From Synechococcus sp. (GTDB lineage Bacteria > Cyanobacteriota > Cyanobacteriia > PCC-6307 > Cyanobiaceae): 64,000 bases of DNA. The stretch spans positions 2,072,203 to 2,136,202 of the forward strand of contig JBJBEO010000001.1 of the NCBI GenBank assembly GCA_047284725.1. Direction: 5' to 3'. Shown in pieces: positions 7,618-64,000 of this stretch; positions within the stretch are counted from its first letter, which is position 1; each line of letters begins with the position of its first letter. The notes under the pieces were generated by a model. It searched no databases. It was not told where the DNA came from and was given only the letters and a program-made list of their open reading frames with translations. Position numbers and translations under genes: made by a program.

Positions 7618-8118
7618 TCAAGGCCCAATCATGTACTTGGCCCAATCGGCACGCTGACCTGTGGCGATTTGACGCCTGGCTTCAAAGGTGAGATGCCCCA
7701 CGGGGCGGTGGGGCTGATGACGCAGTGGCATCTTCGCTTCCTGGGGAGTGCGATTCCCCTTGCGAACATTGCAGCTCAGACAGGCTGTGGTGACGTTGTC
7801 CCAGCTATCGGAGCCACCCCTGCTCCGGGGAATGATGTGATCCATGGAAAGCTGACCACCCTTGCTGCCGCAGTACTGGCAACAGTGGTTGTCACGCTGA
7901 AACAAGTTGCGCCGGGTCAGTGCCAACGGACGGAAGGGAACGTGAACAAACTGCCGCAGGCGAATCACTGTGGGCAAATGCAGATCAGGCCGCAGGCGAC
8001 GGTGAGGATCATGCTCCAGACCCTCAGCCTTCCCCTTCAACAGCATCACCGTGGCGCGGCGCCATGTGGTGATATTCAGCGGCTCGTAGGACGCATTGAG
8101 AACGAGAACCTGGCCCAT
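7618..8118 (-). CDS. HNH endonuclease (McrA-like, small)
   Basis: VLVLNASYEP N-terminus; RD..CQYC, DHIIPRSRGG..WDN..AC..CN..K. Confidence 0.9.
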   Translation of the reverse strand: MGQVLVLNASYEPLNITTWRRATVMLLKGKAEGLEHDPHRRLRPDLHLPTVIRLRQFVHVPFRPLALTRRNLFQRDNHCCQYCGSKGGQLSMDHIIPRSRGGSDSWDNVTTACLSCNVRKGNRTPQEAKMPLRHQPHRPVGHLTFEARRQIATGQRADWAKYMIGP

Positions 8119-8191
8119 GCCAGCCACTGGATTCACAGGCATGCTATGGGGACTTTCCGCTTTGGTCTGTGCCCACCGCAACGATGGCTCC

Positions 8192-9373
8192 ATGCGTGAT
8201 CTGATCAGCGGTAGTCATGAGACGGCCAGCCAGAGCGATCACAGCCGGCTGGACCCCCGTCAGCGCGCCTGGCTTGAGGTCTCACCGGCAGCGGTGGAAA
8301 CCAACGTGCGCGCCCTGCGTCGCCTGTTGCGGCCATCGTGTGCCCTGATGGCGGTTGTGAAAGCGGACGGCTACGGGCATGGCGCCGCGACTGTGGCCAG
8401 AGCAGCGGTGGAAGGGGGCGCGGCCCAGTTCGGGGTAGCCACTCTTCAGGAGGGCATCGACCTGCGTCGCGCCGGCCTAACGCAGCCGGTGCTTGTACTG
8501 GGGCATCTGCACCTGGCCGAAGACCTGCGGGCATGCCTGAAATGGGAACTCATGCCCACGCTGAGCAGCATGCGAGAAGCCCTGCTGTGTCAGAACCTGG
8601 CCGACGGCAGCGGACGCAAGTTCGCCGTACAGCTCAAACTCGACACCGGCATGACCCGGCTGGGCTGTGCCTGGGAGGATGCCCCCAGATTGAGCGAAGC
8701 CATCAGCCAGCTTGACCAGCTGGAGCTGAGCGGTATCTACAGCCACCTTGCTCTGGCCGATGGGGACGCGAATGGGGATGGAGAACGGGTGACACGCCTG
8801 CAGCAACAACGTTTCGACGATGTACTGCGCTGTTTGCCGCCAAGCCGTGCCCTGCACCATCTCGCCAATTCCGCGGGAACACTCCGCGACCGATGCCTGC
8901 ATCACGATCTGGTGCGAGTCGGCCTAGCCCTTTACGGCCACAGCCCCAGCTCCCATCTGGACGCCAAGGTCAAGCTCGAACCGGCGATGCACGTCAAAGC
9001 ACGCGTGACCTTGATCCGCGACGTCGCCGCCGGTGTCGGCGTCAGCTACGGCCATCGTTTTGTTACCGAACGTCCTAGCCGTCTGGCAGTTGTCGGCATT
9101 GGGTATGCCGACGGCGTCAGCCGCTGCCTCTCAGGCAAGATCAGCGCCCTGCACAACAGCCAGGTACTGCCTCAAGTGGGGGCGATCACCATGGACCAGC
9201 TCATCCTTGATGTCACGGATCACCCCCACGTGGAAGCCGGTGATGTCGTCACCCTGCTCGGTCGCGACGGAGAGCGAATTATCAGCCCCCGTGACTGGAG
9301 CGATCTGAGTGATTCGATCCCATGGGAAGTGCTTTGCGGTTTCAAGCATCGCTTGCCCAGGGTGACGGTCTGA
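8192..9373 (+). CDS. alr: Alanine racemase
   Basis: AVVKADGYGHG PLP-lysine motif, DTGMTRLG, GYADG. Confidence 0.96.
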   Translation: MRDLISGSHETASQSDHSRLDPRQRAWLEVSPAAVETNVRALRRLLRPSCALMAVVKADGYGHGAATVARAAVEGGAAQFGVATLQEGIDLRRAGLTQPVLVLGHLHLAEDLRACLKWELMPTLSSMREALLCQNLADGSGRKFAVQLKLDTGMTRLGCAWEDAPRLSEAISQLDQLELSGIYSHLALADGDANGDGERVTRLQQQRFDDVLRCLPPSRALHHLANSAGTLRDRCLHHDLVRVGLALYGHSPSSHLDAKVKLEPAMHVKARVTLIRDVAAGVGVSYGHRFVTERPSRLAVVGIGYADGVSRCLSGKISALHNSQVLPQVGAITMDQLILDVTDHPHVEAGDVVTLLGRDGERIISPRDWSDLSDSIPWEVLCGFKHRLPRVTV

Positions 9374-26752: not shown

Positions 26753-26904
26753 TCAGGCCCTGAAGCTCCGACCAACAACTCGTCATCATTGATCAAACCA
26801 AGTGGGACGGATCCAGACATCACCGATCTCAGCAGAGTCAAGCCAGAAGCATCACACAATGCGTGAGCCGGTCAAGCGATAGATGCAAACTCCAACGAAT
26901 CACC

Positions 26905-28383
26905 TCAACGCGTCAACTTTCTGATCATGCGATGAACAATTCGACCTGGGTGCAATGACCAGAAAGACGTCTCTTGTCCTTTCTGATTGATCGGATCCGC
27001 CAAGGATTTTTGAGTAGAAAACAATCCCAAAACGGCCTCAAAGGACAGAGGGCGATAAAAATAAAAGCCTTGAGCTAAGAGAACACCCATGTCTTTGGCG
27101 AATGACAGCTGAGCCGATGTCTCGATCCCCTCTGCAACAACCTTCATACCGCTTTGAACCAGCGACGCAACAATACCCTTCAGAATCAGCTCCTTCTGAG
27201 CATCAAGCTCACCCGCAAAAGCGACAAAAAAACGATCCAGTTTAACCGTATTAATATCGGTTTCCAAGAGACGCTTCAAAGAGGAATAACCGATCCCAAA
27301 ATCGTCAATGGCAACGACAGCCCCCAAGCCTTTAAGCCGTGCAATAAATTCATCCATGTCTGCATTGGAAATTGTCACCTCTTGCTCAAGAATTTCAAAT
27401 TGAAACGATATATCAGGACACGTCGAAGCGACTCGAGAAACTGAATCAATGATTTTCTCCCTTGCCACAGGCGAGTTAAACGTTGCTCCGGAAATATTAA
27501 TACTGAAAACAAAATGTTTTAAATTAATGGAGTTTTTCATTACAAGCAGATCAGAGACTCCTCTTTCGAGAACGGTAAGATCAAACGTCTCAACCAACGC
27601 GTACTTCTGAAAGACCGGCAGAAACCTATTTGGAGAGTGCAAAACGCCATTAGCCTTGATGCGCGCTAACACCTCAAAACCGACAATCTGATTCGTTTGC
27701 AAATTGACGATCGGCTGGTAATGGGGCTCAACAAGGGAACGAGACAACTGATCAATGAATATTTTTTCAAAGTCGGCTTCGACATCAGGCTCTATCAAGG
27801 AATGAATTCCTTGAGCACTGAAAGAAGAAACAAGATAGCGATGGCCAAAATCTTTTTTAAACTCTTGATCACTACTCAAGAGCGCGTCCATCAGTAAAAT
27901 CGGATTGGATGGAAATCTCGCCAGATCCGCATCATAAAGCCCAAGAACATCAAGCTTAAGCAAGATATCTGAGCCACCAGAACCAAGATCATCGCCCGAG
28001 GAGGTGAGATCGCGATTTGAATTAATTTTGATACACTCTAACGAGGAATCTACAAGGTCCTCAAGGAGCCTTGAAGTATTGACGGGTCCAATATCCCTCA
28101 GCTGTTGGATTAAGACCAAAAAATCAGAACCATTAATATCATAAAACTTACTTCTCTTAGGAAGAACTCCTATCAACAAACGCAGGAAATTGGCTTTTTT
28201 CCGAACACTTGCTTCGGACTCAGTTTTCCCTTCACCCAAGCGACCGAGCAACCTGTAATGAATATAGATATAATTGATATTGAAATCTTGACTAATCAGG
28301 CAATCTTCTGCAAAAGCTAGGCTCGTATAGTCAATTTCTTGACTCTCGCAATAAGACGCAAGCCAATCTAGAGAATAAATCAT
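26905..28383 (-). CDS. EAL-domain c-di-GMP phosphodiesterase with probable degenerate GGDEF-like N-terminus
   Basis: YQPIV, FEVLAR, SINIS, FEILE, DDFGIGYSS, VKLDR, VAEGIET, AQGFYF; ATG 7 nt after the upstream stop. Confidence 0.92.
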   Translation of the reverse strand: MIYSLDWLASYCESQEIDYTSLAFAEDCLISQDFNINYIYIHYRLLGRLGEGKTESEASVRKKANFLRLLIGVLPKRSKFYDINGSDFLVLIQQLRDIGPVNTSRLLEDLVDSSLECIKINSNRDLTSSGDDLGSGGSDILLKLDVLGLYDADLARFPSNPILLMDALLSSDQEFKKDFGHRYLVSSFSAQGIHSLIEPDVEADFEKIFIDQLSRSLVEPHYQPIVNLQTNQIVGFEVLARIKANGVLHSPNRFLPVFQKYALVETFDLTVLERGVSDLLVMKNSINLKHFVFSINISGATFNSPVAREKIIDSVSRVASTCPDISFQFEILEQEVTISNADMDEFIARLKGLGAVVAIDDFGIGYSSLKRLLETDINTVKLDRFFVAFAGELDAQKELILKGIVASLVQSGMKVVAEGIETSAQLSFAKDMGVLLAQGFYFYRPLSFEAVLGLFSTQKSLADPINQKGQETSFWSLHPGRIVHRMIRKLTR

Positions 28384-28390
28384 TTTAGCA

Positions 28391-29572
28391 TCAAGCACCA
28401 GTGACCTTGTTTTTACCTTTGAACTTACTTTTATACAAGAACTCATCAGCGCTGCGCATCAGCACCTCGAGACTGTAACCTGACTTAGACGTACTCGAAA
28501 AACCGGCACTAATCGTGATACGGACTGGCTGATCGCTCTTATTAAAGTGGTACATCTCAATCTGATGCCTTAAACGATTCAGCAAATTAACCGCATCCTT
28601 AGCAGTCGCTCTATATAAGATGGCAAATTCCTCTCCGCCATAGCGCGATGAGCAATCAAAATAATCCCTTGTATTACTTTTAATGATAGCACCAACCTCG
28701 GAGAGAACAACATCTCCAACACCATGGCCATAGGTGTCATTGATTCTCTTGAAGTCGTCAATATCTAAAATACAAAGACAAAAATGGTCACTCGCTTCTT
28801 GAGCCCGTAAAAGCTTTAACTTGCAAATCTCAACGAAAAGCTTTCGATCCATAAGTTGAGTCAAGCCGTCAGTTTGAAGACCTGTAAAAAGAGAAGGGAG
28901 AATCTTATAGTTGAAAAACAGATAAATTGGGAGGTAAGCAAAGAATAGTGCTACAACAGCGATGGCAAACTCAAGGAAGAATTGATTAGACAAACCATCG
29001 TAAAATCCGCTCATTGAATACGTGTAGGCAAGCGTGTATCTATCAGGCTTGCTTTGGCCTTGTCTTAGCATTTGCCTCGGCACAATCTCTCGAGAAAAAG
29101 TGACGAACTTTCCAAGCTTGTTATGATTATTTAATTCAGCCTGTGTGCATCGACGAGCCTCAAAACAAGAGGCAAGCCTTCGAAACTGTGCATTGCTTAG
29201 CTGAGGAACCAGCAATGATTGGGAGTAAATTGGTTGATTGAGCCATAAAGGGACCGACGAATAAACAATTGTACCGTCAGCATCAGCGACAATGATTGAT
29301 GTATGATCACTAAATAACAATTTCTTGTCACGTTTTGCCAGCAAAATATGGGCATCTATGTGCGAAGCCAAAGAGGAGAGTGAATGGCCTGAATCCAGGT
29401 GACTTTCCACAAGACTTACATACTCATTGGCCTTTGAATTTTGATCTTTAACTTCAGATTCAAATGCATCCATGGTTTGATATATAGCCGCAAGCAAACT
29501 TATAAACAGTGTTGAACACGCAAAGAAGATCTTTGATTGCTTTTGAATTCTACGCTTGGTAGGCCTCCTCAT
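28391..29572 (-). CDS. Membrane-bound diguanylate cyclase (2 TM, Cache-like sensor, GGEEF)
   Basis: TDGLTQL, DIDDFKRINDTYGHGVGD, RYGGEEF, TISAG, AD..LY.SK..GKN. Confidence 0.93.
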   Translation of the reverse strand: MRRPTKRRIQKQSKIFFACSTLFISLLAAIYQTMDAFESEVKDQNSKANEYVSLVESHLDSGHSLSSLASHIDAHILLAKRDKKLLFSDHTSIIVADADGTIVYSSVPLWLNQPIYSQSLLVPQLSNAQFRRLASCFEARRCTQAELNNHNKLGKFVTFSREIVPRQMLRQGQSKPDRYTLAYTYSMSGFYDGLSNQFFLEFAIAVVALFFAYLPIYLFFNYKILPSLFTGLQTDGLTQLMDRKLFVEICKLKLLRAQEASDHFCLCILDIDDFKRINDTYGHGVGDVVLSEVGAIIKSNTRDYFDCSSRYGGEEFAILYRATAKDAVNLLNRLRHQIEMYHFNKSDQPVRITISAGFSSTSKSGYSLEVLMRSADEFLYKSKFKGKNKVTGA

Positions 29573-29576
29573 TGGT

Positions 29577-30728
29577 TCACGAGTCAGCTAAAGATTGATT
29601 GGCCAAATAATAGGAGAGCTTCGTTCTACTTGAATTAGAAAAGATCGGAATTAACACAAGATTGTTTTTGAATTGAGTTCCGTCGGATCGGTAGTTAGTT
29701 ATGACGCACTGGAACCTTTTTCCTTTGGCAATGGCATCCTTGATTTCCGCCTTAATAGATACTTCAGTGTCAGGACCTTGCAAAAATCTACAATTTTTTC
29801 CCAATACAAACTCACGGGTGTAACCAGTGAGCTCAGTAAAAGCCTGGTTGGCGTAGATTGTAGGTTGGCCATCGGCCGTCATATCAGATATCGTGATACC
29901 AACGGATGATCTCTCAATAGCTTCTTTGAAAATCTCGGAATCGTCCAATATTTTTGTGACATCAGAGATGTTTTTAATTTCATCATCAAGGCTATGCTTC
30001 AAGTTTCTTATAATATTATTGTTTTTGATGTATACATTGCGCGAATAGAATAAACCTACAATGCCAACAACTGATGACATCAAGGCCGTGTAGTAAATTG
30101 GATTCATATATTCAACCTCTAAAGACTCCAAGCTCTTAACGCTCACCTCTTGTATACCTCGAAGATCACCAACCTTCCAATTTTTCTTGGGAGAATCAGG
30201 ATGAGCATTATGACAGGTGACACACGACTCTTTCATTCTCACAGGCGTTGCAAGCCTGAAAATTTCGTCTTGACCTATTTGACTGTACTTTTCGTAAAAT
30301 CGAAGCGTTGGATCCTTTTCAAAAACTTGAATGGAGTCTTGCTGAAAAGCATCGAGAGCTCTTTCCTCTTTACGGTTATTAAAAGGATATTTAGACGTAA
30401 AGGCATAATTGATTCTTCCATCTGAGTGTGTGGCATCAAAAATAGCGCCCAACTCGATGGAAAGCGTTGCAGGAATTGGAATCCCGCCCTTGAAGTCATG
30501 GTAGCGCTCAGAAAGCACAACTTTTCCCTCACCCTCTTGAACATTAGAGACGATATTTTGTGAATAATAGGCCCTGATATTGTCGACCAAAGAAGCAATC
30601 TCTACTGCCTCATTTTTCATTCTGGTTTTCGCTGCATCACGAAGACCAGTCGTAAACAGTAAAGGCAAAAGCAATCCCAAAAGAATTGAAGCAGCCAGAA
30701 AAATATTGAGAACTCGTTTAGCGCGCAC
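29577..30728 (-). CDS. Membrane sensor: c-type heme (DUF3365/Tll0287-like) domain plus LOV domain, no output domain
   Basis: TM helix; GGIPIPATLSIELG...CVTCHNAHPDSPK..WKVGDLRG; TM helix; coiled linker; YANQAF..LTGY..GKNCRFLQG..NYRSDG..F.N..Q. Confidence 0.9.
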   Translation of the reverse strand: MRAKRVLNIFLAASILLGLLLPLLFTTGLRDAAKTRMKNEAVEIASLVDNIRAYYSQNIVSNVQEGEGKVVLSERYHDFKGGIPIPATLSIELGAIFDATHSDGRINYAFTSKYPFNNRKEERALDAFQQDSIQVFEKDPTLRFYEKYSQIGQDEIFRLATPVRMKESCVTCHNAHPDSPKKNWKVGDLRGIQEVSVKSLESLEVEYMNPIYYTALMSSVVGIVGLFYSRNVYIKNNNIIRNLKHSLDDEIKNISDVTKILDDSEIFKEAIERSSVGITISDMTADGQPTIYANQAFTELTGYTREFVLGKNCRFLQGPDTEVSIKAEIKDAIAKGKRFQCVITNYRSDGTQFKNNLVLIPIFSNSSRTKLSYYLANQSLADS

Positions 30729-31807
30729 TGGAGCCTAGATGCTCTCTTTATGCTAGTAACGATTGACGCAAAAGACAAGGACAAGCAGGGAGCTTGCTCG
30801 TCTCTTCATATCCTTAGGAGACTAACAGCGCAGCGCTCATCGATTGATTGCATTGCGTACCGATCAAGCCAACCGACCTACCCTCCGGGCTGTATTTTCT
30901 TCAGCAACCTTGATTCAAGGGGGAAAAGGCATCAAGCAAAGGACAATCCTGATCGATTAATTCATCTTCCGAAAAGAATGATGCAATAACTGTTGTGTAT
31001 AAGAGAAAAAATATGTGCGATTCTTCGATCCATTCTGGGTCCACTCCTCGATCAATAGAGCCACCGGACATGGTCTTTCCATACCCAATAAGTGCCTAGA
31101 AACCGATCGCGGTCCAAGGATCATGCTGAAGACAAAAACTCTCATGCTGCCATCCACTAAATCCTAGAACTACCCGGCAATCACAACATTGATGTGCCAA
31201 GAGCATGAAGAAATCCAGTCACAATCGGATGATCTACCTCACAAGAGCCGCAACACAATGAGGCGAAGAACTCCTCATTGCGCACCATCGACTGACGTCA
31301 ACCAGCCATTGGAAGCTGGAAGGAAATCGCAGGAGTGGGCATGGCATTCTGCCTAAAACAGGCAGAACATTTCCGTCTCTTCAATCATTTGCCCGTCAAA
31401 AACTCTCATGGTTTGACCCACACTTTTCAGATGACCGACACATATAAAAATCGAAGGACAGTTTCCAGTGGGCTTTTCCAAAAGCCAATGCCAGCAATGA
31501 ATAAGCTTCTTTTCCAGGGTGCCCGCACTATCCAACCACTGCCAATCAATGAAGACATAGCACCATGATCCCTGCCTGGCGAGCATCCAAGTGATCCACA
31601 GGATCAATCACCATTGTGGCGACATCAACAGGACAAAGCATTCGCTTCAGCGATGCACGCCATGGCTGAAAACCAAAACCCATCCCCCTGTTTGGGCACT
31701 GGGCCAGTCCCCTTGTCGCTGGTGCCAGGCAATCTTTCAAGCGATCACGTGCCCACAAACGGGGCACTGCAACGCAGCAGCAACAGAGAATCTTGATGGA
31801 GATTGAG

Positions 31808-31881
31808 TCGGGATGACAGGATTCGAACCTGCGGCCCCTTCGTCCCGAACGAAGTGCGCTACCAAGCTGCGCTACATCCCG
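31808..31881 (-). tRNA. tRNA-Pro(CGG)
   Basis: Reverse complement CGGGATGTAGCGCAGCTTGGTAGCGC...ttCGGga...GGTTCGAATCCTGTCATCCCGA. Confidence 0.97.
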
Positions 31882-59880: not shown

Positions 59881-61380
59881 TTGCGCGTGAGCAAAGAACT
59901 TCGACGATCGAAAATATTCCAGAAGACCGGCTGCACCAGGCTCTGTTTTGTCCTGGGTGGAATCGGAGCATCGCTCACCATTGGAGCCACTTCACTCACC
60001 TACCTGTTTCTGCACGAGCAACTGGAATTCACTGCGTCACTCCTGGCCAAGGAGCGGGTTTCAGCTGCCTGTGGTTCGTTGCATTCGCTGACCTTTGAGT
60101 TACTGGAATCATCGCTGAACCGCACCGATCCAAAGCGAGATCTACCTGCATGGACGCTGGGAACAGGCAACTACACAGCCGATGGCATCAGGTGGACCTC
60201 ACCCCCAGCGTCAGAGCTCAAGCGCAACGTCACACGCATCCCCCAACAACAGGCTGTTCACAGAGGGCACGGCAAAGCATCTCCGACCACCGAGCCTGAG
60301 CGCAACGAAGCCGCGCACAAACTTCGTCATTCGGTACCAGAAAGCGCTTGCACCTTACATGGAGTTCAAAAGAACGGCGAAGGGAGGGCACTACCAGTCG
60401 CGCTGTTTTCCATCCCTAGAGAACAGCAGCAGATCGCACTGGCAACTCTGTCCGATGAAGGCATCGCTCTCGACGAAAACGACACAGGACGATTTGCCAT
60501 CATTGATCTCACAAAGATGATCAATTCATTCGCAATGAATGAAAATCAATCCCTGATGTCAAGCTGGCTCCCTGACGAAAAAGCCTGGCTGAAGATTGAA
60601 ACATCTTTATCCACATATTCGATGGACAACGTGAAGCATGTGAGCGATGAACATATCCACTACCTGACGAATCCTCCTGATCCAATACAAAGACAACAAG
60701 CGTCTGAGACAGGTCTTCACCAGATCGTTCTCCTCACAGCCAATGGCATGGAAATCATCTATGAAGCATGGGTGGATTACAGCCTCCTTGATCGCCTACC
60801 CAAACGCATCGCCGGACTGATTTTCATTATCGGGTTGATGAGCTCTGGGGTTGGAGTGATGATGAGTCGAACTGCACTGATCAAGGAAGCGAAGATCAGT
60901 GAAGAACTCCGCAGACAGAGCAGAACCGACAGCCTGACGGAACTTCCGAATCGTCGCGAGTGGGACGAACGTCTGGATCAAGAAAACAACATCCTGCAGC
61001 GACACAATCGGAGCTATGCCATCGCCGTAATCGACCTTGATGGGTTCAAAGCAATCAATGATTCATTGGGGCATGCGGCTGGCGATTTGCTTCTCAAGCG
61101 TGCGGGCAAGACCCTGAAAGCAATGATTCGCAGCGAGGACATCGCCGCAAGGGTCGGTGGCGATGAATTCACCGTTCTCTTCTGTGAACCAACAGAGGAT
61201 GGCGAGGAACAACTCCTGAAGCGTCTTGAAACCACCTTCAACGAACAAGGGATCAGCACGTCGATCGGGATTGCCTACTCCCAACGGAATCAAACCCTCA
61301 TGGACCTCTGGCATCGCGCGGATCAACTGATGTATGACTTCAAATCTGCGAAAAAAACCAAGAGGGAACGCAACGACTAG
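59881..61380 (+). CDS. Membrane-bound diguanylate cyclase (2 TM, large extracytoplasmic domain, GGDEF)
   Basis: TDSLTELPNRR, DLDGFKAINDSLGHAAGD, RSED I-site, RVGGDEF, SIGIA, ADQLMY..K. Confidence 0.92.
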   Translation: MRVSKELRRSKIFQKTGCTRLCFVLGGIGASLTIGATSLTYLFLHEQLEFTASLLAKERVSAACGSLHSLTFELLESSLNRTDPKRDLPAWTLGTGNYTADGIRWTSPPASELKRNVTRIPQQQAVHRGHGKASPTTEPERNEAAHKLRHSVPESACTLHGVQKNGEGRALPVALFSIPREQQQIALATLSDEGIALDENDTGRFAIIDLTKMINSFAMNENQSLMSSWLPDEKAWLKIETSLSTYSMDNVKHVSDEHIHYLTNPPDPIQRQQASETGLHQIVLLTANGMEIIYEAWVDYSLLDRLPKRIAGLIFIIGLMSSGVGVMMSRTALIKEAKISEELRRQSRTDSLTELPNRREWDERLDQENNILQRHNRSYAIAVIDLDGFKAINDSLGHAAGDLLLKRAGKTLKAMIRSEDIAARVGGDEFTVLFCEPTEDGEEQLLKRLETTFNEQGISTSIGIAYSQRNQTLMDLWHRADQLMYDFKSAKKTKRERND

Positions 61381-63125: not shown

Positions 63126-64000
63126 TCAGCGCAGCTGAACCAGACAACCCTCACTGCGAGGCGGGGGCTTTGGTGTTGTGGTCCCATGGGGATCCGCCAG
63201 CGGAGCAGCCGCCAGGGTGTCGTTGAAACGATCGCGAATCGCAATGACCTCATCGGCATGGGCTTCGATGGCATCAACGCAGCGATGGTCCAGCTTTCCA
63301 GTCGCGACCAGTCGCCTCAATTCAGCCATCGCCTCGTCAGGGCATCGAAGACATCGGCGACCGCAATGATGCGCGCCTCTAACGGCACGGCATCTCCGGA
63401 CAAACGATTGGGGTAACCGGAGCCATCGAGACAGTCGTGATGGGCCGACACCACATTGAGCATGACGTCAGCATCCGGCAGTTGATCAAGTTGAAAATCA
63501 CCGAGCATGCGTTGCAGTACAACGAACCCTTTGTTCACGTGGGTTCCCATCACCGCCCGTTCGGCTGGCGTCGACGGGCCTGGCCTGAGGATGATCCGGT
63601 CAGGAATGCCGATCTTGCCGATGTCGTGCAAGGGCGCAAACAGATAAAGATGCTCGATGTATTCATCGGTCAGAGCACAGTCGCGCTGGAGATGCTTGGC
63701 AAACTCCCGGACGACATGGGCCGACGATGCCATGGAACGCACCAGACTCATGTCTCGACTGATGGTCATGCCCATCAACATCGAGAAAACCGACAGGTCT
63801 TTCTGCACCCGAGGCGTGAACGCCGCTAAAGAACAGGAGTCGTAGAAGAGAACGCCGATGAATTCTCTGCCTTCAAACAACGGAACCGTGAACGACGACT
63901 GGTAACCCTGATCAAGCAACCAGCGGGAATGGCGGTTCACGGGCTTCACCACCTCCTAGATCGCGTCGAGAACCCTCGGCTCACCTGTGCACGCCATGGT
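63126..64000 (-). pseudogene. GAF + HD-GYP phosphodiesterase pseudogene (5' end beyond window)
   Basis: LHDIGKIGIPD, HH..LDGSGYP, ARIIAVADVFDALT; in-frame TAG at 63956-63958; frameshift near 63335-63340. Confidence 0.88.

Follow-up and report, generated by a model that had tools for sequence, protein, structure and literature searches.

The window analysed here, a stretch of 64,000 nucleotides (nt) from a Synechococcus sp. genome (GenBank assembly GCA_047284725.1, contig JBJBEO010000001.1), contains a cluster of three genes on the minus strand, the first of which encodes a transmembrane sensor protein with a heme-c domain, a LOV domain and no output domain. Gene 1 (29577..30728) was identified from its open reading frame (ORF), Pfam and NCBIfam matches and a structural model; it has a GTG start and encodes 383 amino acids (aa). 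The elements of its product are, in order, a first transmembrane helix (TM1), the heme domain, a second transmembrane helix (TM2), a long helix and the LOV core. TM1, or signal anchor, covers about residues 7-28 (30645..30710) by hydropathy and lies inside helix 2-65 of the model. The Tll0287-like or sCache_heme domain, matched by PF11845, covers residues 32-197 (30138..30635) and is predicted to be extracytoplasmic; its CVTCH motif for heme-c attachment (residues 169-173, 30210..30224) is indicated by the sequence, its invariance and the model. TM2, which is moderately hydrophobic, was placed from the sequence at about residues 208-229 (30042..30107), inside model helix 203-272. A linker helix of residues 230-272 (29913..30041), predicted to be cytoplasmic and delimited by the model and a fixed spacing, leads from TM2 to the LOV core. 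The LOV core, about residues 266-378 (29595..29933), was recognised by Pfam, NCBIfam, sequence search and Foldseek and contains Cys313, Asn345, Asn355 and Gln378; its flavin-adduct motif, GKNCRFLQG, occupies residues 310-318 (29775..29801), and N312 and C313 are nearly invariant.

In the public annotation, gene 1 (P0002, 347 aa) is called from Met37 and loses TM1 (window 30620-30728, minus strand). This annotation is probably 36 codons short, because two relatives of 383 aa, P0001 and P0003, begin at the position of the GTG (30728). Both relatives are intact and are 97% and 85% identical to the window protein, respectively.

PF11845 (Tll0287-like) matched residues 32-197 with an E value of 3.2e-22 and 80 bits against a curated cut-off of 24.1, and PAS_9 of Pfam matched residues 277-368 (E 5.8e-14). 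NCBIfam models of the LOV type matched residues ~250-378 (E 1e-30 to 1e-34), below their full-length cut-offs; YtvA_fam (E 1.7e-30) and BluLightHisKinLov (E 1.3e-31) matched the LOV part only. These NCBIfam matches are partial because the models include an output that is absent from the gene 1 protein. No further Pfam or NCBIfam domain was found in the protein, and a HAMP match was likewise absent in Pfam. Judged from the sequence, the agreement of Pfam, NCBIfam and motifs is profile-level and far beyond chance. The AlphaFold2 model, made from an alignment of 56 relatives, had a mean predicted local distance difference test score of 86.5. In this model, helix 2-65 spans TM1 and the first Cache helix and is followed by an alpha/beta domain, one uninterrupted helix (203-272) forms TM2 and the linker, and the PAS core ends at residue 380. 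TM1 reached a Kyte-Doolittle 19-mer mean of up to 2.5, and its hydrophobic stretch is also present in full-length homologs. Hydrophobic residues recur every 3-4 positions along the linker (I240, L243, L247, I251, I254, V257 and L261), and 117 of the 130 proteins with both motifs place the LOV Cys exactly 143 residues from the heme Cys.

In the heme domain, C169, C172 and H173 are invariant in 56 aligned sequences. In the model, CVTCH sits in a short helix (167-175) between strands 154-164 and 189-198. This placement agrees with the definition of sCache_heme domains, namely a canonical CXXCH in a short helix inserted between Cache beta strands, in the available part of the paper on that family (bioRxiv 10.64898/2026.02.01.703092). 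A heme-domain profile searched against the PDB gave Tll0287 (PDB 5B82) as its best match, a weak one (E 0.0064), and a single-sequence search of the PDB with this domain returned a chance match only. TM1, a strong helix, and TM2, a moderate one, border the domain; its position outside the cytoplasm, a prerequisite for covalent attachment of heme, is a prediction. Residues 29-207 contain no cysteine besides C169 and C172, and heme ligation by Cys/His of the Tll0287 type is excluded because there is no Cys outside CXXCH in the heme domain of the window protein. Conserved residues His176 and Met165 lie close to the CXXCH motif, and either could, as a candidate from the sequence, be the sixth heme ligand. 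In the part of the family paper at hand, one signalling member senses nitric oxide (NO) and a stand-alone member shows redox-type behaviour (bioRxiv 10.64898/2026.02.01.703092). An earlier note on this DNA, made from the sequence alone, had stated that DUF3365 domains usually feed cyclases, kinases or chemoreceptors; this is half true, since nearly half of the Tll0287-like/sCache_heme domains are stand-alone according to the same part of that source (bioRxiv 10.64898/2026.02.01.703092).

The LOV core of the model matched solved LOV structures in Foldseek with a probability of 1.00 and a root mean square deviation (rmsd) of 0.8-1.5 Å over ~105-117 columns, with target TM-scores of 0.8-0.94 for isolated LOV-domain chains. 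The matches included Brucella LOV-HK, MrLOV, DsLOV, RsLOV and phototropin LOV1. With phmmer, the LOV part matched LOV families at E values down to 4.6e-21. The adduct residue Cys313 lies within GKNCRFLQG, and the LOV Cys motif was present in 130 of 268 collected proteins. N345, N355 and Q378, which we take to be flavin contacts, are invariant or nearly so across the family alignment. The protein ends with SLADS, 5 residues past Gln378, so that the J-alpha helix is absent. By every sequence and fold criterion tested, the gene 1 protein is a member of the PF11845/sCache_heme family and of the LOV class, and we place high confidence in the assignment of both domains and their cofactors, the loading itself being presumed. 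The reading in the earlier note of a heme motif between two hydrophobic helices, of a photoactive Cys kept together with Asn, Asn and Gln, and of both motifs at exactly the positions given above thus held, and the sequence, Pfam and NCBIfam agree with it that the protein stops five residues past the Gln without a J-alpha helix or an enzyme domain in cis. The predicted topology likewise puts the two sensor domains on opposite membrane faces, as that note had proposed.

The earlier note had called this architecture unusual. A word-indexed protein search limited to lengths of 210-671 aa gave 603 matches, and all 120 matches listed carry PF11845 and PAS families with no enzymatic Pfam domain, so the architecture is not rare. 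The matches listed were mostly from Cyanobium and Synechococcaceae; most were 450-530 aa long with 39-46% identity to the window protein, and most had an extra tail of ~85-100 residues past the LOV Gln that belongs to no family. P0001, P0003, P0004, P0053, P0067, P0069, P0100 and P0125 end as early as the window protein. Among the 130 two-motif proteins, the tail past the Gln was <=10 residues in 9 (one being the database entry of the window protein itself), 11-40 in 1, 41-130 in 112 and >130 in 8. An exhaustive search of representatives gave 29,926 matches at E <= 0.001 and 149 at E <= 1e-30. Twenty-three more distant two-domain relatives (26-44% identity) were scanned: 18 were histidine kinases, 1 was fused to GGDEF and 4 were output-less. 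The LOV Cys motif was kept in 9 of the 23, among them the histidine kinases P0130, P0140, P0141, P0148, P0155 and P0166. Homologs that continue into a kinase or cyclase, which the earlier note had named as a sign that the present copy is truncated, were thus found among the distant relatives only.

A quick IQ-TREE analysis of the part of the alignment corresponding to window residues 30-380 (56 rows, unrooted) grouped the output-less proteins in one clade of 44 rows with a support of 98 in the Shimodaira-Hasegawa-like approximate likelihood ratio test (SH-aLRT), and the kinases branched outside. A short-tail clade of 10 rows (SH-aLRT 99), including the window protein, P0001, P0003 and P0004, had the 34 long-tail rows as its sister clade (support 93). 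Several kinase rows were on long branches, and in the unrooted tree both loss and gain of the kinase fit. These sequences make clear that the end directly behind the last LOV strand was inherited and does not mark a truncated copy: the short ending is common to the 10-row subclade and the output-less state to the 44-row clade, which disposes of the truncation considered in the earlier note.

Gene 2 (28391..29572, minus strand) encodes a membrane diguanylate cyclase of 393 aa whose GGDEF domain (with the motif GGEEF) was identified from the ORF, Pfam, NCBIfam and a fold search. A 4-nt gap separates the stop codon of gene 1 from the ATG of gene 2. The product is laid out as a transmembrane helix, an extracytoplasmic alpha/beta domain of ~155 residues, a second transmembrane helix and the GGDEF domain, which matched PF00990 (E 1.1e-37) and GGDEF structures (rmsd 1.7-2.5 Å). 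Across 28 cyclase orthologs, the periplasmic domain always has Cys136 and nearly always Cys144; the pair is a candidate disulfide switch in the same compartment as the heme. The RxxD inhibition site of the orthologs reads RxxxD in the window gene. No homology between the periplasmic domains of sensor and cyclase, which would underlie a Cache heterodimer, was detected by hhalign (probability 2.8%). Gene 3 (26905..28383, minus strand) encodes an EAL phosphodiesterase (PF00563, E 6e-52) with a degenerate GGDEF-like N-terminal part, which aligns to the degenerate GGDEF region of GAF-GGDEF-EAL ortholog(s). Its likely start is Met22 of the ORF 26905..28446, 7 nt past the stop of gene 2. The EAL domain has EVL, DDFGIGYSS and EGIE, which are presumably the catalytic motifs. 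By motif, the products of genes 2 and 3 look catalytically competent. The earlier note had described the sensor as having no effector; this is right in cis, but a GGDEF cyclase gene and an EAL phosphodiesterase gene lie directly downstream in a conserved order.

A genome scan kept 80 loci, 33 of which had a sensor match of 38-46% identity reaching the LOV Gln; both domains were covered in these 33 except in L037, which is cut at the 5′ end. Thirty-one of the 33 were titled cyanobacteria, and L027 and L034 stood under other bin names. The latter two, from metagenome-assembled genomes binned as Bradyrhizobium ivorense and Chitinophaga pinensis, carry a picocyanobacterial sensor-GGDEF-EAL operon (38-41% identity), and the bin names of these contigs look wrong. 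When searched by tblastn with window gene 2, 32 of 33 loci had a cyclase ortholog immediately downstream of the sensor gene in the same orientation; in the exception, L004, the sequence ends 38 nt after the sensor stop. The ortholog matches often reach into the non-catalytic N-terminal part. With the most upstream start taken, the cyclase begins -4 to +10 nt from the sensor stop in 25 of the 32 loci, and 16 of those 25 have a 4-nt overlap of sensor and cyclase. A same-strand EAL gene comes next after the cyclase in 28 of 33 loci; four of the five others are cut by contig ends, and two of these four show the start of a third gene. One Synechococcus assembly has three sensor copies (L013, L021 and L026), each with its own cyclase gene.

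Loci of heme sensors that are fused to enzymes (histidine kinases at L029, L030 and L036; cyclase-type proteins at L039, L043 and L054) had no GGDEF/EAL neighbours. Two betaproteobacterial loci, L033 and L035, encode an output-less Cache_heme-TM-PAS protein of 390 aa whose PAS domain is LOV-like but has lost the Cys (GRPLRFLHG), and the gene after it encodes a hybrid histidine kinase. In L035 (5941-9022) the kinase ORF and the sensor gene share 17 nt, and in L033 (1374-4470) the kinase ORF begins 25 nt after the sensor gene. The design of an output-less sensor beside an enzyme gene therefore recurs with different enzymes. The third gene of Cyanobium-type loci encodes a GAF-GGDEF(degenerate)-EAL protein. 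A coupling between the tail of the long-tail sensors and the GAF domain of the phosphodiesterase was considered and rejected, as tail length does not track GAF. Sensor tails of 86-92 aa went with clear GAF matches in the phosphodiesterase, and seven loci had tails of 99-102 aa, with no GAF match in L006, L017, L021 and L034, a weak one in L009 and L023 and a clear one in L001.

From these data we favour, at somewhat better than even confidence, a reading in which the gene 1 protein is a two-input sensor subunit that controls the neighbouring cyclic di-GMP (c-di-GMP) enzymes in trans through presumed contact. The heme-c Cache domain would face the periplasm, or possibly the thylakoid lumen, and report the ligand or redox state of its heme; the LOV core, with flavin mononucleotide (FMN), would face the cytoplasm and report blue light. 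The fixed spacing of 143 residues, the single model helix and the periodic linker hydrophobics suggest a dimeric receptor in which the heme-Cache domain and the LOV core are mechanically coupled via TM2 and a coiled-coil linker. Because there is no J-alpha helix and the sole covalent link of the LOV core is the helix into TM2, light-driven changes would have to act via the N-terminal helix and membrane bundle or via a free LOV surface. Either signal would then alter the membrane bundle or the exposed surface of the LOV core, the co-translated cyclase of gene 2 would read the change, and the phosphodiesterase of gene 3 would complete a make-and-break pair, so that the cassette would set c-di-GMP by light and an extracytoplasmic heme signal. 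For that signal, NO has a precedent among signalling sCache_heme members in the available part of the family paper (bioRxiv 10.64898/2026.02.01.703092). The direct support for this reading is the domain identities, the motifs, the predicted topology, the clade-wide absence of output and the conserved gene order with start/stop overlap; we infer cofactor loading, what the heme signal is, that sensor and cyclase touch, and in which direction regulation runs.

Several points weigh against sensor control of the cyclase in trans. Binding between the products of genes 1 and 2 is presumed, and the gene order speaks for co-inheritance, not for contact. The cyclase has a periplasmic sensor domain of its own and for that reason could work alone. 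At L013 there is no same-strand EAL gene, and a promoter and terminator scan gave counts at or below the shuffled expectation, by which the operon is not defined. TM2 is only moderately hydrophobic and falls under the hydropathy threshold of 1.6 (hand sum ~1.47). His176 or Met165 as sixth ligand would favour redox over gas sensing. In place of the Arg of the family motif IRxAI, which we take to be an FMN phosphate contact, the window protein has Lys330 (EIKDAI), as do its two closest relatives. A complex prediction for sensor and cyclase gave a score of 0.00 with controls not run and is evidence neither way.

The best surviving alternative, which we consider unlikely, is that the gene 1 protein is a stand-alone membrane photoreceptor or adaptor with unlinked partners, as proposed for soluble short LOV proteins, and that the c-di-GMP genes are merely co-inherited. 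The closest solved LOV relatives, which include the output-less RsLOV, DsLOV and PpSB1-LOV, are consistent with it, as is the separate periplasmic sensor domain of the cyclase. However, the order of sensor and cyclase genes is kept in 32 of 33 loci, with start/stop overlaps, and the three paralogs of one assembly each keep a cyclase gene of their own. We consider it less likely still that the heme-c acts as a redox relay on the periplasmic cysteine pair of the cyclase, a thiol-disulfide switch that LOV only tunes. The conservation of Cys136 and Cys144, the conserved His176 and Met165 near CXXCH, and the redox-type properties of stand-alone members of the heme family in the part of the source consulted (bioRxiv 10.64898/2026.02.01.703092) would suit such a relay. 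There is, however, no indication that the heme lies close to the cysteine pair, homology between the two periplasmic domains was not detected, and within the heme family the gene 1 protein falls among the membrane-anchored, PAS-linked members of the signalling type.

That the LOV-type domain serves in vivo as a flavin redox or oxygen sensor and not as a light sensor seems very improbable to us. Betaproteobacterial relatives that have the fold without the Cys (GRNARLLQG, GRPLRFLHG) show that the scaffold works without photochemistry, and Lys330 replaces the consensus Arg, but the picocyanobacterial clade has retained Cys313 and the Asn/Asn/Gln set throughout, and the host is a phototroph. A decayed, non-functional remnant of a heme-LOV histidine kinase can be dismissed almost outright: the distant relatives with the LOV Cys motif (P0130 and the five others named above) are indeed full histidine kinases, but the clade that shares the output-less state comprises hundreds of database clusters, no cofactor motif has been lost, the linker length is fixed, and the 383-aa relatives P0001 and P0003 are intact.

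The proposed control of separate enzymes by the gene 1 protein has counterparts among known systems. In H-NOX and GGDEF/EAL pairs, an output-less heme sensor controls a separately encoded c-di-GMP enzyme of the same operon; H-NOX differs in fold, carries heme b in the cytoplasm and has no light input. The Cache_heme-HAMP (CHH) receptor of Pseudomonas azotoformans, also output-less, binds a Ser/Thr kinase of its operon with nanomolar affinity and changes the action of the kinase upon NO binding to its heme, as described in the available part of that report (bioRxiv 10.64898/2026.05.25.727664). As far as that part goes, the CHH receptor resembles the layout predicted for the gene 1 protein in its periplasmic heme-c Cache domain, its two transmembrane helices, its non-enzymatic cytoplasmic domain and its enzyme from a neighbouring gene; unlike it, the gene 1 protein has LOV and no HAMP, its neighbours are a cyclase and an EAL protein and not a kinase and a phosphatase, and its host is a cyanobacterium. 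The gene 1 protein may work like the CHH receptor but is not a member of that group. By analogy, the gene 1 system would seem to work most like the CHH-kinase pair and the pairs of heme sensor and c-di-GMP enzyme.

The Cache_heme-TM-LOV histidine kinases (P0130 and others) have the same order over the N-terminal 380 residues, both motifs and a spacing of 142-152 residues, but they continue into HisKA/HATPase_c, are 29-36% identical, fall outside the output-less clade and are uncharacterised. The short LOV proteins DsLOV (4KUK/6GBV), RsLOV (4HIA/7OB0) and PpSB1-LOV (3SW1/5J3W) share the adduct Cys and the absence of a fused effector, and the gene 1 LOV core matched them at E 5e-21 to 2e-18 and rmsd 1.1-2.5 Å. 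DsLOV reportedly has no J-alpha helix and relies on its N-terminal helix. Short LOV proteins are soluble with a single cofactor, whereas the gene 1 protein is integral to the membrane, and the N-terminal helix of its LOV core runs on into a transmembrane helix and the heme domain. Blue light is tied to c-di-GMP turnover in fused LOV-GGDEF enzymes as it would be here, and the LOV-activated diguanylate cyclase PDB 8C05 matched both the LOV part of gene 1 and gene 2. Examples in the accessible parts of the sources are SL2 of Synechococcus elongatus, a LOV-GGDEF(-EAL) enzyme (PMC10124867), and the dual-sensor Rec-LOV-GGDEF cyclases, which integrate two inputs (bioRxiv 10.64898/2026.02.07.704614). 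The fused enzymes are one polypeptide coupled by a C-terminal helix, whereas here the genes are separate and LOV has no C-terminal helix. Tll0287 of Thermosynechococcus (PDB 5B82), the founding member of PF11845, to which the gene 1 heme domain also belongs, is stand-alone and has Cys/His heme ligation in the available part of the family paper (bioRxiv 10.64898/2026.02.01.703092), whereas the gene 1 domain is anchored by two transmembrane helices.

We found no description of a protein with heme-c Cache and LOV in the literature as covered outside supplementary datasets and the 2016 LOV census tables. The available part of the sCache_heme family paper mentions no LOV or flavin binding, and a figure in it lists PAS among the partner domains (bioRxiv 10.64898/2026.02.01.703092). 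The gene 1 type is uncharacterised and widespread in picocyanobacteria; its parts are known ones, and the plan by which they are combined was described recently. The sensor role of heme-c Cache domains has been recognised only lately, and this family joins such domains to LOV across the membrane in an output-less form. A LOV signal normally passes along a C-terminal helix to a fused effector, and the family raises the question of LOV signalling through an N-terminal helix and the membrane only. With hundreds of members in bloom-forming freshwater picocyanobacteria beside c-di-GMP enzymes, it may provide a route from light and a periplasmic or lumenal heme signal to decisions on aggregation or motility. 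The split design of sensor and enzyme could serve the optogenetic control of membrane enzymes.

The three genes and ~1 kb upstream of gene 1 form a low-GC island (26850..31500, ~42% GC) in a genome of ~61% GC. The GC content at third codon positions is 0.40-0.42 in the island genes versus 0.68-0.80 in psaA, psaB, gltB, lipA and tuf. The island lies between a cobalamin gene and a tRNA-Pro(CGG) gene at its edge (31807..31881, minus strand). No direct repeat of at least 14 nt linking the tRNA-Pro edge to the other edge was found, nor any integrase at the island, and the small ORFs in 30750-31607 had no match. A terminator-like hairpin with a T-run lies at 30780-30802 (minus strand), ~50 nt upstream of the gene 1 start; such elements were not more frequent than in shuffled sequence. 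The fraction of FYMINK residues (Phe, Tyr, Met, Ile, Asn and Lys) is 0.30-0.37 in the short-tail clade versus a mean of 0.19 in 111 long-tail proteins, and close relatives of the N-terminal part of gene 2 were limited to two metagenome proteins (71-72% identical). The AT-rich make-up of the short-tail proteins and the few close cyclase relatives make the island look like a recent import from a low-GC pool, and the window copy would represent the cassette moving as a low-GC island adjoining a tRNA gene. In several Cyanobium loci (L009, L023, L028, L016 and others) the GC content of the sensor gene is also clearly below that of its surroundings (0.505 versus 0.634 in L009), and there too the cassette may be part of the flexible genome.

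A bolder version of the proposal, which we regard as rather improbable, is a horizontally mobile three-gene cassette that leads from light AND extracytoplasmic heme to c-di-GMP, in which a single output-less subunit, bearing both cofactors on either side of the membrane, gates the cyclase via the TM2-linker helix and the short-tail form may travel on cyanophage genomes. A cluster of 126 members in a protein-language Atlas, with look-alikes of 377 aa, is labelled 'Bacteria 56%, commonest Uroviricota (phylum known for 9)'; this label is only a lead to a possible phage-borne lineage. In GenBank phage records nothing matched both domains (5 records matched in the LOV part alone), no DNA matched the island and the GGDEF matches were generic only, and PHROGs contains no family with the heme-LOV architecture. 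If the cassette is phage-borne, phages would gain a light- and redox-gated handle on host c-di-GMP. If, on this bolder view, the protein is located in the thylakoid membrane, the heme would instead read the redox state of the lumen against incident blue light.

The remaining gene content of the window, with psaA, psaB, psaL and a radical SAM protein of the PSII high-light type, is that of a phototrophic host, a picocyanobacterium. A second GGDEF protein (499 aa, 59881-61380, plus strand) and a partial match to a response-regulator c-di-GMP phosphodiesterase of the NosR family (63317-63952, minus strand) are encoded in the high-GC core. The host thus already has c-di-GMP signalling, given these GGDEF and phosphodiesterase-like genes. 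Elsewhere in the window, an ORF of 191 aa (7618-8193, minus strand) matched a model of the RNA-guided endonuclease IscB over ~60 residues only (E 2e-20) and is probably an HNH-type fragment.

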